Source: a phage
Length of the DNA stretch: 64,000 nt
Strand: one strand, 5' to 3'
Assembly: GCA_025832235.1 (NCBI GenBank)
Contig: GCA_025832235.1_3649.1
Of this stretch, positions 368-64,000 are shown piece after piece (position 1 is the stretch's first letter; every line of letters begins with the position of its first letter). The notes under the pieces were generated by a model. That model saw nothing but the letters and a program-made list of their open reading frames with translations. It was not told the origin of the DNA and did not search any database. Position numbers and translations under genes: made by a program.

Positions 368-871
368 AGCTGCCTCCTCTTCAAGTTATAGAAAAACTCA
401 CTGTATCGCTTTGTAACGAGCTTTTCTATCAAACTGGTGCGATTGCATTACCTGGTATAGTTTATATAGCTGTGGAGCGATTTAGGGGCCTTCTTGTCAG
501 TTTCCACACATAAACTTCATCCAAGCTCGCGCGGGAGACTCTCAACCGACTCCTTACGGCGCTGGCAAGCTTTCGTCGGTGGTCCACATCAGTGCTCGGC
601 CTTTAGCCTGCGCTATCGCTTCGCTCCCACACATGTTAACAGACCTGTATGTATGAACTTCTGTTATTGTGTGCACCAAAGAGGCCCGGCATCTCGCCCC
701 TCGTAGGCGAGTGCCAATGAAGGGCCGACACTGCCCATAGTAAGTAATAAATTTAAAACATGGTACTTAGGATCTAGTATATTCTACATAAGTTAAGTAT
801 ATGTACTTAGTACCATAAGTACTAGATCTTTTATTTTTTATTATTTAGTTATTTTAGTTATATTCTTTATG

Positions 872-952
872 TGTCCGTATCACGGACAGTTAGTGTCCGT
901 ATTACGGGCAGATGTGTCCGCGTGACGGACAGTAGTGTCCGTATCACGGACA
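872..952. promoter_or_regulatory. array of four operator-like palindromes TGTCCGT-N3-ACGGACA
   Basis: copies at 872-888, 894-910, 915-931, 936-952; copies 1 and 4 identical perfect inverted repeats; 21-22 bp phasing. Confidence 0.6.
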
Positions 953-1027
953 GTTACTAACCTCTGTTCCAGAGCGAACATAAAACATACGAATCCTTAT
1001 AGTACAGATATTTAAGTTTTTACTGGT

Positions 1028-1378
1028 CTAACCAGTTGTTGACATTCGAATAACTTCTTCTGGTGGCAAAACTTTGGAAAATGTGCATCTTTTACCTCTC
1101 CCTTGTGTGGATATTTCAACCACTCCCGCACATTCTAAAGTTTTAACGCACGCTGCTGCTTTTGTTTTCTTTATTCCAACATCTGCTGCAATTTTCCTTG
1201 TGCTGGGTGTGAAGCGTGAACTTCCTCCAAGCTTATACCAGTTGTGCAGGTAGCAGTATACGATCTTGTCATACAAGTCAAGAACAACAACCTCCCCAGT
1301 TGTGTCATTCAAAACTTTTGACATAGATAGTATTTCAAGGGGGACTTTAAGATATAGCAGCTTATCCCCATCTTTCAT
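1028..1378 (-). CDS. putative winged-helix DNA-binding protein
   Basis: ORF with AGGAG RBS; helix-turn-helix-like segment STRKIAADVGIKKTKAAACVKTLECAGVV followed by basic wing; function inferred. Confidence 0.45.
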   Translation of the reverse strand: MKDGDKLLYLKVPLEILSMSKVLNDTTGEVVVLDLYDKIVYCYLHNWYKLGGSSRFTPSTRKIAADVGIKKTKAAACVKTLECAGVVEISTQGRGKRCTFSKVLPPEEVIRMSTTG

Positions 1379-14718: not shown

Positions 14719-15139
14719 TGCAAAAGCTTTTGGTGAGACAGCGGTACAAAGAGGACAGGCGATGGGACTGGCACTACCTTTCGTCTTAAAAGAGCACTTT
14801 ACAGATTTTCAACTTATCAAAGGTGATAAGGGAATGCTTATCCTGGAGCATAAGTTGAGTAAGAAACGCTATAAAGTCGTTTTTAATTCTAAAGCTCCAA
14901 CAAAACTGGGATTCAGAACTTACAATCTTAACCCATCCTACACTAAGGGTGTTGGAAGGGTAGAACAACAGCATTTCAGTGCCAGAGCTTCTTTAGCCCC
15001 TTTGATGCTAAATTTCTCAGGGGTGGCTTTAGGATACCTTGATAAGAAAAGAGTTCTTCATGTCCGTTTCACAGACTTTGTAACGCTTTTAGCTAACAAC
15101 GAGGTTGATGAAAAGGGACGTGTAAAAACAAACTTCTAA
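14681..15139 (+). CDS. hypothetical protein
   Basis: ORF. Confidence 0.4.
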   Translation: MIKSIDLTKELTDAKAFGETAVQRGQAMGLALPFVLKEHFTDFQLIKGDKGMLILEHKLSKKRYKVVFNSKAPTKLGFRTYNLNPSYTKGVGRVEQQHFSARASLAPLMLNFSGVALGYLDKKRVLHVRFTDFVTLLANNEVDEKGRVKTNF

Positions 15140-41723: not shown

Positions 41724-42423
41724 CACACAATATTAGCTGCCCGGCTAAAGTGCTGGAAGCACCTATAACACATCTTTCAACTAAATTTCCTACCACCACA
41801 ATCACTTACCTCCCATACATGACTGTTTGCTTGTTTAGTGAGCAGTCATGCCTTGACATTCTTGCCTATCCTGATAAAATTAAGTTCTTCTCTTTTCTTT
41901 TACCGAGTAATTCGGGTTTTCTGTTCTCTTCGGTTTGAAGGGGTATGGAGATACACCTGAGTGAACAGGGTGAACAACCGAACCATTGGCTATGGCATTA
42001 GCATGGCGAAGCGGACGGGTGACGAAAGAGGGGCCGGAGGACACCAGTCACTGCCATATGATATATGGGTGATAACCTGAAGAGTCTGAATAAGTGTTTA
42101 AGTACCAGTCAGAGGAAAAGGTGAATGGTAGCCGAAGGGGGAGGGGGGTTTCTTGTATCTTTAATTTGTATATTATGTATACACTTGTAAACCAATTTCA
42201 TCTGAATCTGTTTACCACACAAAGTGGATAGAGACAAATATTACCTATTAAACTTGAATTATTTATAGAAAATACCACAACACCACTTAAGTCTTTGATT
42301 TTACACACAAATCTTACAGATATTCAACCTCCATATTTAACATACCTGTAACATATTCCATACTCTACCTGTCTGATCAATCTACCCAACCACATCCTTC
42401 ATATTTTCCCTGTCTGTACCACC

Positions 42424-42635
42424 CCTGCCCCGCCGGGAGTCCCGTCATATCTGGCTTTCCAGCAAATATCACACCCACAAATATCATTGCCTGAAGAGGG
42501 TTTCATCCCATAATACATGCCTTACCTGAAGAGCGCTTCATACACCACGTAAATTTTTTAATTGACCTGCAATTTTCCCGTCATGACCCCCTGCCCCGCC
42601 GGAGAGGTTGGCTTTTCCCACACAGACCTGAAGAG
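42424..42635. repeat. imperfect ~110-bp direct repeat pair plus four CCTGAAGAG copies
   Basis: CCTGCCCCGCCGG at 42424 and 42588; CCTGAAGAG at 42076, 42490, 42525, 42627. Confidence 0.6.
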
Positions 42636-43213
42636 TCAGCCAGAAATATCTGAACAGGCCCAATTCTACCACGATTTTGACCTGACCTACAGGAGTGCTG
42701 CCAGGCGGACGAAATGGGAATACTTCTCATTCTTATAACAATTCTCAAATATCAAGGCAGTGAGGCAAATTAATAGGCTAGGCCGTTCACACAGTGGCAC
42801 AACATTTGCAATCTATTTTGTGTGGGGGAATGAGAATACATATCATTGTGAGAACCATTATCATTACGGGCAATTTAACATAATACCCATTATGCGCACC
42901 ACTGGCGATACATACAGGGATTGATAACATGAGTTACTGTTTACGCATATAACAATTATATTTATTACTATTTGTGTGGGATATAGTTAGCAGCCGATAG
43001 ATTAGATATTGACCTGCGGACTTCTGACCGTCTAGACGTCTAAACGCCCACACAGCAAGGGTTATACATACATCGCTGAATGTAAACAGGGCCGCAAAAA
43101 TGCTACCATACCAGTTTGTAAATTTTCAATGCAGCACTTGACAAAGAGGAGAAAAACTTGTCTGACACCTTATACACTTTCGATACAATAACGACTGTTA
43201 TTATTTCATGTTT

Positions 43214-43300
43214 CACTGTTCACGTATAGATTGTTCCCGCATAGACTGTTTACGCCTGGATAGTTTACACCTTGACAGTTTACGCATAGATGATAAGCCA
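43214..43300. repeat. iteron-like tandem series of 15-16 bp repeats
   Basis: TAGAtTGTTcCCGC / TAGAcTGTTTACGC / TAGTTTACAC / GACAGTTTACGC in tandem. Confidence 0.6.
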
Positions 43301-43544
43301 TGCCATTCGTTTGCATGAAAACAATTAGCAAGTTAACAATTAACAAGTTAATAATATATGACATAATATAAAAGCAGGGCAACTATTATTAGATCTATAG
43401 TTGCCTTGCTTATTATGTCATGATTAACTGAATATAAGGCAACTATGATCTGATTAATAGATTGCAGACAAACTATCACGGGGGTGATGGTTACTGCTTT
43501 TATATTATGTCGCGACTCCGTCGCGCCATGCCATTCGTTTGCAT
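43297..43544. repeat. 20-bp perfect direct repeat GCCATGCCATTCGTTTGCAT flanking a nested palindrome cluster
   Basis: copies at 43297-43316 and 43525-43544; between them 18-bp perfect inverted repeat GACATAATATAAAAGCAG (43360-43377 / 43494-43511) enclosing GGCAACTAT/ATAGTTGCC palindromes. Confidence 0.65.
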
Positions 43545-44156
43545 AGTTGCCTTATTGTTACAGGTAAAACAATTACATTGTTAACTATTTCTTATCTTTC
43601 TCTTAGTCATCTAATGATTCCAGTCAGTATAGTTATGTGCAGTAAACATTAGACGACTAAAGATTTCTCTGATTATAGTAACCTATCGTGACAATTTCGA
43701 ACTGTTTACGAAAAATGTTGACACCTGGGCAGGTTTATGTTATGCAGTTTGTACGAATAATTATTTTGTACAGGTATTGACTATTCCGTTATTCTGTGGT
43801 TGGAATAAATACTTTGCAGGCTATAGAATGGTGATCGTACGTGGATTCTGAGATCTGTCGGCTATAGTTACACCCGATTTTTCACGTAGGACACGCTTTT
43901 TGGTTTGTGTAAGTGTATGACTTATAAGGGTTTTTAATTGTTGACAGTATACTGAAGATGTGCATCAGGTTAAATTTTGTGCAATAGCTGCATTACGTGC
44001 AATTTTGGGAGAGAAAACGGGTAAAAATAGCACCGCTACCACACAATGAAAGGTTATGCAATAGCTATTTTACATGTATATTTGTACAGTGTGCGGGATT
44101 GATGGCTCGTCAATTATTCCACTTGTCAGGTAGGGCCGTTTATGGTAGGAAAAGAG

Positions 44157-44184
44157 CAAACAAAAAGAAAGGGGCCTAAGCCCC
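44157..44184 (-). terminator. rho-independent terminator ending the minus-strand block
   Basis: minus strand GGGGC-ttag-GCCCC then TTTCTTTTTGTTTG. Confidence 0.6.
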
Positions 44185-44198
44185 TTGATAATGTTGTA

Positions 44199-44462
44199 TT
44201 ATTTGTTGCTCATCCAGTTTTCCCAAGCTGCCTGATAATCTGCCTCACTGCGGCGGATCTCTTCTTGTTCTTCAAGCCGGATCTCTTCTTCCAGGTACCC
44301 AAGGATGTCGGATTTTTTGGTCTGGCGTAACATCCAATCATCTTTTTTACGAGTAAAGATCTTGTACGCTTTCTCGCAAACCTCTTTTTTACTACCTTTT
44401 TGTACTTCAAGAACTTTGTAGGCCATGTACTGAACTAGTTTGAGCTGATCAAGACGTTTCAT
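44199..44462 (-). CDS. hypothetical protein
   Basis: AGAGGT RBS; 5' UTR hairpin GGGCC-AAAA-GGCCC upstream. Confidence 0.5.
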   Translation of the reverse strand: MKRLDQLKLVQYMAYKVLEVQKGSKKEVCEKAYKIFTRKKDDWMLRQTKKSDILGYLEEEIRLEEQEEIRRSEADYQAAWENWMSNK

Positions 44463-63282: not shown

Positions 63283-63558
63283 CAATAGTTCAGGTAGGTC
63301 GTTAAGCTACCCCGCACCATTACGTGCATAGCCATACGTTTTCACGTAGGATCGGACCATCTCATATTCCTATGATAAGCAACCACAGGAATCCTCCCAT
63401 TTCGACCGCACTTGCTGGTCTACTTCCTTTCGGAATGGCCTCTGAGCGTTCGCTCTTTTGAGCGCTTCGTTGCGGATTACCTTGCCATAAGGTTTAGGCT
63501 TCCCGCAGTTAAAGAGGTTATTCGACATAGATTACTCTATGAAGCCACAATGTTATTT
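63283..63558 (-). ncRNA. group I self-splicing intron in DNA polymerase gene (no internal ORF)
   Basis: 5' exon ends CAU, intron ends G; elements ACUGCGGGAAGCC (P), GUAAUCCGCAACG (Q), GUAGACCAGC (R) and GAGAUGGUCCG (S); length restores frame. Confidence 0.7.
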
Positions 63559-64000
63559 ATGGTAATAAATAATACGACGAACACCTTCATCGTACCACCC
63601 ACGCTTCACCATCTGGCGGTGCATGAGTATTCCAACTAAGTCACACAGCGATGCACCACCATTTTGTTGGTATGCATTAAGTAAAGAGTGTTTAGATCTG
63701 GTCCAGATAGCATGACCATCAAAAGAGTAGATAAACTTCTTACCCGTTGCTTCCCAGAATTTCTCCAGATCTTCTTTACGCCCCTTAAGACCAGGGTTGG
63801 CATCCCAGAGTGCATCGATTACCCTTTGTCCCAACTCTGGAGAGATGTCCAGCATATCTGCAACTTTATCTTTTTGTGCCCCATACATAACCCCATACGT
63901 GATAGGTTTACCGTCGTTACGGGAAATCTCCTTGCCTGCTACAGAAGAGTAAGCTTTGGCGTTATTACAGTTACCGCACACTGCCACTTTACCATTCCTT
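63559..64000 (-). CDS. family A DNA polymerase, 5' exon (partial, continues beyond window end)
   Basis: motif B-like region ...AKAYSSV...YGVMYGAQ... and NAYQQNGGASLCDL; ends ...VRRIIYYH at the splice site. Confidence 0.7.

Follow-up and report, generated by a model that had tools for sequence, protein, structure and literature searches.

Results

Organization of the locus

The window analysed here is a 64,000-nucleotide stretch of phage DNA, and its nucleotide identities place it among the rV5-like members of Vequintavirus, phages of E. coli. Positions 400–1500 are 99.9% identical to Escherichia phages ECO111 5-P and pangalan, and about 118 further Vequintavirus (rV5-like) genomes are 98–99% identical to the window at the locus. 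Coordinates in rV5 itself (NC_011041) are roughly those of the window plus 64,280, and rV5 65,145–65,240 corresponds to window 865–960 at 100% identity. There is no annotated feature at those rV5 positions, and published annotations at the repeats described below consist of a 'repeat_region' only, or are absent. Eighteen records named 'Campylobacter phage' (MG0656xx, host C. jejuni) are 98% identical to the E. coli rV5-like phages across the locus, which suggests that they are mislabelled or contaminant genomes.

The local genes are all on the minus strand. An early operon starts with a P-loop kinase-like gene (AAA_33, about 2396–1988), continues with a metallophosphoesterase gene (Metallophos, 1980–1426), and ends with a gene encoding a 116-residue winged-helix protein (1028–1378). 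Its promoters are predicted at 2422–2455 within a divergent region (about 2400–2460), where the published table also places rV5 promoter P081. Past the operon there are 660 bp without any ORF, and a minus-strand ORF of 192 residues then starts at 370; the three frames read through 371–1027 are all closed and full of stops. Reading along the minus strand, this non-coding region consists of a 75-nt spacer between stop codon and array (953–1027), which is the most variable piece of the locus, an array of palindromes (872–952), an AT-rich tract (720–871), a GC-rich stretch (about 440–719, 52–57% GC), and the 5' leader of the next ORF. The GC-rich stretch is conserved in each of the 119 Vequintavirus records; no frame through it is open, and we found no relatives of it outside Vequintavirus. 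Folding of 430–735 was no better than that of shuffled sequences (z -1.3), and an Rfam scan of 300–1100 returned nothing credible. Far from the locus, at 63,333–63,568 on the minus strand, the window contains a Group I catalytic intron (Rfam RF00028, 64.7 bits, E 4e-14). No annotated family was found for the 192-residue downstream ORF.

A phased array of four palindromes

Four copies of TGTCCG-N5-CGGACA form the 81-bp array, with start-to-start spacings of 22, 21, and 21 bp, and the array starts 76 nt past the stop codon of the winged-helix gene, i.e. 3' of it. Site 1 (936–952, TGTCCGTATCACGGACA) is nearest to the gene and is a perfect 7+3+7 palindrome, and site 4 (872–888), which abuts the AT-rich tract, is identical to it. 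At site 2 (915–931, TGTCCGCGTGACGGACA) the innermost pair is T..A, C..G, or T..G among relatives, and site 3 (894–910, TGTCCGTATTACGGGCA) has one arm mismatch that is fixed in all of them. The window contains seven matches to the palindrome at three or fewer mismatches, compared with 1.49 ± 1.18 in shuffled sequences, none of which (0/100) reached seven. The initial annotation of this DNA had described four palindromes spaced 21–22 bp apart, two of them perfect and identical, and both the coordinates and the shuffles bear this out; it had also placed them just 3' of a small gene and next to an AT-rich region, in agreement with a minus-strand ORF that has the array past its stop, and with 720–871 following the array in the direction of the gene. 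A spacing of 21–22 bp is close to two helical turns, and the sites should thus lie on one face of the DNA, which is sound geometry.

The array is the sole locus of its kind in the phage. In a composite full genome of 138 kb, constructed from the window and the rest of phage pangalan, sites with two or fewer mismatches are confined to the array apart from one chance-level site at 15061 (two mismatches), a search that the initial annotation had proposed. Half-sites outside the array are not enriched in the composite genome either, with 14 on both strands and a simulated range of 5–16. In a separate IMG/VR contig (L087, 2303–3421) we noted three exact copies of TGTCCGTnnnACGGACA spaced 350–750 bp apart.

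Conservation of the array was assessed in an alignment of 11 relatives, including lineages in which the winged-helix protein is only 85–90% identical. All 48 arm bases are 100% identical to those of one divergent lineage (L112, L113, and L118), and the arms of site 1 are invariant in all of the aligned relatives with the exception of one T>C change in L116. The whole array is 97.5% identical to that of the L112/L118 lineage and the spacer only 79%, with the winged-helix gene at 85.5% nucleotide identity in the same divergent lineages. The AT-rich tract is 92.7–100% identical among relatives (about 93% in the divergent lineage), and the GC-rich stretch is about 88.5% identical in that lineage. 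Within the sites, variation is limited to the five central positions, and the innermost pair occurs as T..A, C..G, T..G, and C..A. Because this pair (positions 7 and 11) varies freely, the selected unit is best written as TGTCCG-N5-CGGACA; the four copies of the unit first proposed, TGTCCGT-N3-ACGGACA, are real, and the part that is conserved is 6-bp arms around a 5-bp center. The initial annotation had named absence of the motif from related genomes as part of what would count against it, and the arms are conserved across the aligned Vequintavirus relatives. Fixed arms with free centers fit the contacts that a symmetric protein dimer would make on duplex DNA.

An AT-rich tract of extreme instability

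The proposed DNA-unwinding element at 720–871 lies next to site 4. The 100 bp from 772 to 871 are the least stable in the genome of about 138 kb, with a nearest-neighbor dG of -102 kcal/mol relative to a genome mean of -133.5 (sd 5.8) and a next-lowest 100-bp window of -110.7 kcal/mol, and they begin 1 bp from site 4. The tract is also the most AT-rich in the genome at 60, 100, and 150 bp (GC 15%, 19%, and 23%, respectively). It contains GATC at 771–774 and 825–828, and an exact match to the E. coli oriC 13-mer consensus GATCTnTTnTTTT at 825–837, the only one in the window. No DnaA boxes are present in 650–1030, even with one mismatch, nor are there IHF or Fis consensus sites in the same interval. 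An origin of the DnaA-dependent oriC type was considered and rejected, since there is one exact 13-mer but no DnaA box. Between 760 and 828 there are two inverted repeats (ATGGTACTTAG / CTTAGTACCAT and GATCTAGTA / TACTAGATC) that are interleaved rather than nested, and their TGGTAC cores bear a loose resemblance to TGGTAAAATA, the late-promoter motif published for rV5, but face each other.

A scan for sigma-70-like promoters (at least 9 of 12 matches) returned none in 300–1030 and recovered the operon's own promoters at 2422–2455; these scans cover promoters of the sigma-70 type. A scan of 300–1030 for intrinsic terminators, including the spacer at 953–1027, also returned none, and the published rV5 list of 33 near-consensus TTGACA-type promoters and 20 terminators has nothing between 64,664 and 65,311. 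GC skew tracks the direction of transcription and does not mark the array.

The 116-residue winged-helix protein

The small protein had been noted to contain a segment resembling a helix-turn-helix, and an AlphaFold2 model (pLDDT 80) agrees, predicting a winged helix-turn-helix with an N-terminal beta-hairpin extension, a basic wing tip, and a short C-terminal helix. The match to Pfam HTH_36 (PF13730) scores 22.8 bits for the window protein, where the gathering cutoff is 25 bits, although the database lists PF13730 for relatives that are 97% (P0001) and 87% (P0003) identical; there is also a sub-threshold match to DUF6945. PHROGs places the protein in phrog_12838 ('replication initiation protein'), and its weak matches to phrog_8102, 428, 270, 678, and 8540 are all to families annotated as replication initiation or O-like. 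These matches are limited, with E values of 0.03–0.09 for phrog_678 and phrog_8540, and only positions 20–95 of the 337 in phrog_8102 spanned. GenBank records name the protein 'putative transcriptional regulator'. From the profile matches, the protein is related, weakly but consistently, to the DNA-binding N-terminal domain of the O-like replication initiators of phages. The family is limited to Vequintavirus, with only weak distant matches elsewhere in both word-indexed and exhaustive protein searches, and a protein-based search of IMG/VR returned no relatives. The DNA context of one distant homologue (P0014) has neither an array nor an AT-rich tract.

Two related modules in phage 4MG

A homologue of the 116-residue protein is encoded by the Seunavirus phage 4MG (gp255, 105 residues; 38% identity over 48 residues). 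Ahead of the gp255 start there are two direct repeats of 18 nt, 23 bp apart, and beyond them an AT-rich tract, and this layout recurs in phages of Cronobacter, Klebsiella, and Erwinia with proteins 68–96% identical to gp255. In the 148.6-kb 4MG genome, the AT-rich tract near gp255 has the lowest stability of any 100 bp, and the tract ranked second lies immediately 3' of a further small winged-helix gene, gp111, past an inverted repeat, an arrangement that mirrors the layout in rV5. The two 4MG proteins each match positions 9–114 of the 337-position phrog_8102 (E 6e-37 and 2e-34), and by this coverage they are relatives, only as large as the N-terminal domain, of much longer annotated initiators. 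Full-length relatives of gp255 (about 337 residues) that might carry a separate C-terminal domain were sought, and only short proteins were found. Small phrog_8102 winged-helix proteins annotated 'replication initiation protein' occur in Seunavirus, Mydovirus, and Henunavirus, which are in the same subfamily as the rV5-like phages; with 98–105 residues they are confined to the N-terminal domain and lie beside repeats and an extreme AT-rich tract, as at the rV5-like locus.

The motif ATAAAGAACTAAATAATAAA...AAGATCT is common to the rV5-like tract and both 4MG tracts (z 5.2 and 4.1), GATC pairs recur in both 4MG tracts, and the A-rich motif and the GATC sites have the same polarity relative to the binding sites in all three. 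The repeats themselves differ from the rV5-like array, being either two direct 18–20-nt repeats 23 bp apart or a single inverted pair. The gp111 module (L127, 33,620–34,096) has CGTAGGT-N19-ACCTACG, whereas the gp255 module (L004, 1,169–1,700) has two copies of AGCCTAnnCTCAAATTGA. The positions also differ: the gp255 repeats occupy a divergent promoter region ahead of the gene, and the rV5-like array is 3' of its gene. Whereas rV5-like phages have one module per genome, 4MG has two, and it may thus be a phage with two origin-like modules.

The same palindrome in uncultivated viruses

We searched IMG/VR for two adjacent copies of the palindrome and recovered 17 viral contigs. Copies at a 20–25-bp period number seven in L134, six in L130, and five in each of L136, L138, L141, and L144. 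These arrays of five to seven copies sit in the middle of genes, within ORFs for proteins of 334–387 residues with an N-terminal winged helix-turn-helix; for L130, L134, and L136 the ORFs themselves were read, the same 387-residue ORF spans the array in L138, and L141 and L144 were judged to be related from their flanking ORFs. Nine further contigs (L131 and eight relatives) have two copies at the 3' end of a gene for a 133-residue HTH_36 protein. For three of the four protein families of the array contigs the PHROG matches are to 'replication initiation (O-like)' or to a DnaD-like loader, with the L130 protein having an HTH_IclR match only. These initiator-like genes thus have the same 6+5+6 palindrome in two to seven copies, either within a winged-helix gene or ending it, and match the same PHROG families as the 116-residue protein (270, 678, 428, 8102, and 8540). 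The 133-residue form shows that proteins the size of an N-terminal domain, with terminal sites, occur in other viruses. The ORF that follows it has no similarity to the 192-residue ORF at our locus.

There are differences to consider. Pairwise similarity to the 116-residue protein is negligible and the relationship is at the profile level only, most of the array proteins (334–387 residues) have a C-terminal region that the 116-residue protein does not, and the DNA flanking the arrays is only mildly AT-enriched. A profile of the N-terminal domains of the array-contig proteins matches the rV5/4MG profile with 96% probability, although each of the two profiles holds one 4MG phrog_8102 member. Iteron families are very many, such that a shared 12-nt core can arise by chance; the common core may be a coincidence, and we make no claim that the DNA motifs share an ancestor. 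A search of IMG/VR for single palindromes gave 104 matches that are isolated and chance-like. In addition, four Burkholderiales and other beta-proteobacterial MAG contigs (L165, L167, L177, and L186) have a palindrome pair at 20-bp spacing, located at the 3' end of a gene, or overlapping it, where the encoded protein terminates in a Fis-type helix-turn-helix typical of NtrC-family sigma-54 activators. The pair probably serves as an enhancer-binding site and has no relation to the phage array.

Discussion

We have described here a locus in rV5-like phages where four phased palindromes, the least stable DNA of the genome, and a gene for a small winged-helix protein lie side by side. Its anatomy, the conservation of the arms, the stability minimum in two genera, the affinities of the protein, and the analogues in other viruses point to an origin of replication built from iterons and an unwinding element. 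The initial annotation had left the choice between a repressor, partition, or origin-binding array, and it is origin binding that is best supported, from the AT-rich tract, the initiator homology, and the arrays within initiator-like genes. We give a probability of about one half to the proposal that the array, the AT-rich tract, and the 116-residue protein gene constitute an iteron origin similar to ori-lambda, with an initiator that consists of a DNA-binding domain only. That the initiator would be of this kind is proposed because lambda O has a C-terminal domain for recruiting helicase that is missing from the protein, and because the sites are located just past the gene.

The events at such an origin can be envisaged as follows. 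The early operon, from its gene order and predicted promoters, would supply the 116-residue protein, dimers of which would occupy the four 17-bp dyad sites. Aligned on one face of the DNA at intervals of two helical turns, the dimers could wrap or bend it, and the resulting strain would open the adjacent AT-rich tract, probably with the help of read-through transcription from the early operon. The phage's own primase-helicase and polymerase, both annotated in the near-identical pangalan, would then enter the bubble.

Comparison with characterized origins shows both likenesses and departures. Ori-lambda has four or more tandem iterons, which are imperfect inverted repeats, followed by an AT-rich unwinding tract; the O initiator binds the iterons through an N-terminal winged-helix domain, transcription from an early promoter crosses the origin, and Stx lambdoid phages have six iterons (PMC7466680). 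The rV5-like locus is similar in having tandem inverted-repeat sites (four 17-bp dyads, where the lambda iterons are 17–19 bp), an AT-rich tract that flanks them directly, a physical association with the putative initiator gene, and probable read-through transcription from an early promoter upstream. It departs from ori-lambda in that the lambda origin is inside the O gene and the array here is past the stop codon, in that O has a C-terminal domain to recruit P and helicase whereas the 116-residue protein is modelled as one winged helix-turn-helix without it, and in that the iteron sequences are unrelated. The phage is also unlike lambda in being a virulent myovirus of 137 kb that encodes its own primase-helicase and polymerase. 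The G38P protein of SPP1 oriL and the RepA_N/DnaD-type initiators (PDB 4pta, 8ojj) have extra domains for contact with the helicase or loader, and show no sequence similarity to the 116-residue protein above the generic level for winged helices. Rep proteins of iteron plasmids (RepA/RepE/pi) have two tandem winged-helix domains in about 250–330 residues, compared with the single domain in 116 residues here.

Several observations weigh against an origin at this locus. The initiator would be without a recruiting domain, skew offers no support, the tracts in 4MG-like phages coincide with promoter regions, and there is a second repeat-rich non-coding region at 42–44 kb. This region (41,950–44,200) has about 2.2 kb without convincing ORFs, corresponds to the 'non-coding' box of the rV5 map where two transcription units converge, and is a candidate for a rival origin or terminus. 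It contains five copies of ACTGTTTACGCATA (three of them at 30-bp spacing, 43215–43288), three copies of a 24-nt AT-rich repeat, an exact 20-nt repeat (43297 and 43525), a perfect 18-nt inverted repeat (43360 and 43494), and three of the genome's least stable 100-bp windows (ranks 2, 4, and 8).

The strongest of the other explanations, although we consider it rather unlikely, is that the array is a transcriptional operator or roadblock, at which the 116-residue protein, made early, would bind all four sites cooperatively in a regulatory role, either blocking read-through from the early operon or repressing or activating a non-consensus promoter in the AT-rich tract. Winged-helix proteins of this fold are mostly transcription factors, and the GenBank name reflects such a role. 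The array is also suitably placed between the early operon and the downstream genes (the 192-residue ORF, the tRNAs, and the late module) with no terminator, and in 4MG-like phages the two repeats lie between the AT-rich region and the ribosome-binding site of the homologue's own gene. Moreover, inspection by eye shows TTGATC-16-TATAGT in the second 4MG tract, and the A-rich strand could perhaps serve as an UP element. Because the equivalent tracts in 4MG-like phages coincide with promoter regions, a role as operator or autoregulator stays plausible. The repressor option of the initial annotation is therefore still a rival, but one weakened by the failure of both the scan and the rV5 table to place a promoter-like site in the 660-bp non-coding region, with none of the 33 published rV5 promoters located here, whereas the OR and OL operators of lambda overlap -35 and -10 elements. 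A single locus also means that there is no regulon, and regulation leaves unexplained both the genome-extreme stability minimum beside the sites in two genera and the multi-copy arrays inside initiator-like genes elsewhere. We note that the roles of origin and regulator are compatible, since phage origins such as that of lambda depend on nearby transcription. A LexA box was rejected by eye, the half-site spacing being wrong.

It is very improbable that the palindromes act in RNA, as four transcribed stem-loops that terminate, stabilize, or process the early mRNA. The minus-strand RNA of 860–1030 does have a favorable predicted fold (-54 kcal/mol, z -4.6), read-through probably carries transcription across the region, and site 2 occurs in T..A, T..G, and C..G states, but the folding score is a trivial consequence of the palindromes, no stem is followed by a U-tract, and the 21–22-bp phasing has no rationale at the RNA level. 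The pattern of fixed arms and free centers is also a poor match to an RNA stem-loop, since the states that are not complementary, C..A at sites 3 and 4 and T..G at site 2, would be wobble pairs only on opposite strands, such that no single strand is favored; in addition the arm sequence is the same in all four copies while the loops vary, which is the reverse of a constraint on structure alone. Intrinsic terminators and REP-like hairpins were also rejected, there being no terminator-like site and a single locus in the genome.

Equally improbable is a packaging array (similar to pac or cos) or a partition centromere bound by the winged-helix protein, even though small terminase subunits and centromere-binding proteins can be winged-helix proteins that act on phased repeats, as lambda gpNu1 does at cosB, and the terminase genes are on the same strand, about 4.3 kb onward. 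The winged-helix gene is not a neighbor of terminase but part of an early operon for nucleotide metabolism, the homology of the protein is to the N-terminal domains of initiators and not to TerS or ParB/ParR, and the partition option of the initial annotation has little to recommend it in a virulent myovirus where the neighboring genes are the AAA_33 kinase-like and Metallophos genes and no gene of the ParA/ParM type is adjacent.

Returning to the origin proposal, the original rV5 genome paper attempted skew analysis and could not define an origin, and we found nothing in the literature on Vequintavirus origins, iterons, or maps of transcription start sites. The rV5-like group is large; its members serve in the typing of E. 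coli O157, feature in the BASEL collection, and have been considered for biocontrol. The locus provides these phages with a precise origin candidate consisting of an 81-bp array, a 150-bp AT-rich tract, and one small protein. If it is instead regulatory, it marks a boundary control between the early operon and the tRNA/late region. A more specific proposal, which we offer tentatively and with less confidence than the origin itself, is that rV5-like phages have a minimal lambda-like origin at which an initiator with only the iteron-binding domain melts the AT-rich tract and a self-loading primase-helicase enters, and that 4MG-like phages have two such origins, each with its own specificity; if so, small 'HTH_36' genes beside extreme AT-rich tracts would mark origins across the subfamily. 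Confirmation of the origin would show that a relative of the O-type initiators with only a DNA-binding domain can serve a large virulent phage, and would provide a simple rule by which origins could be located in related genera, as well as a defined cis element for phage engineering and studies of replication timing.
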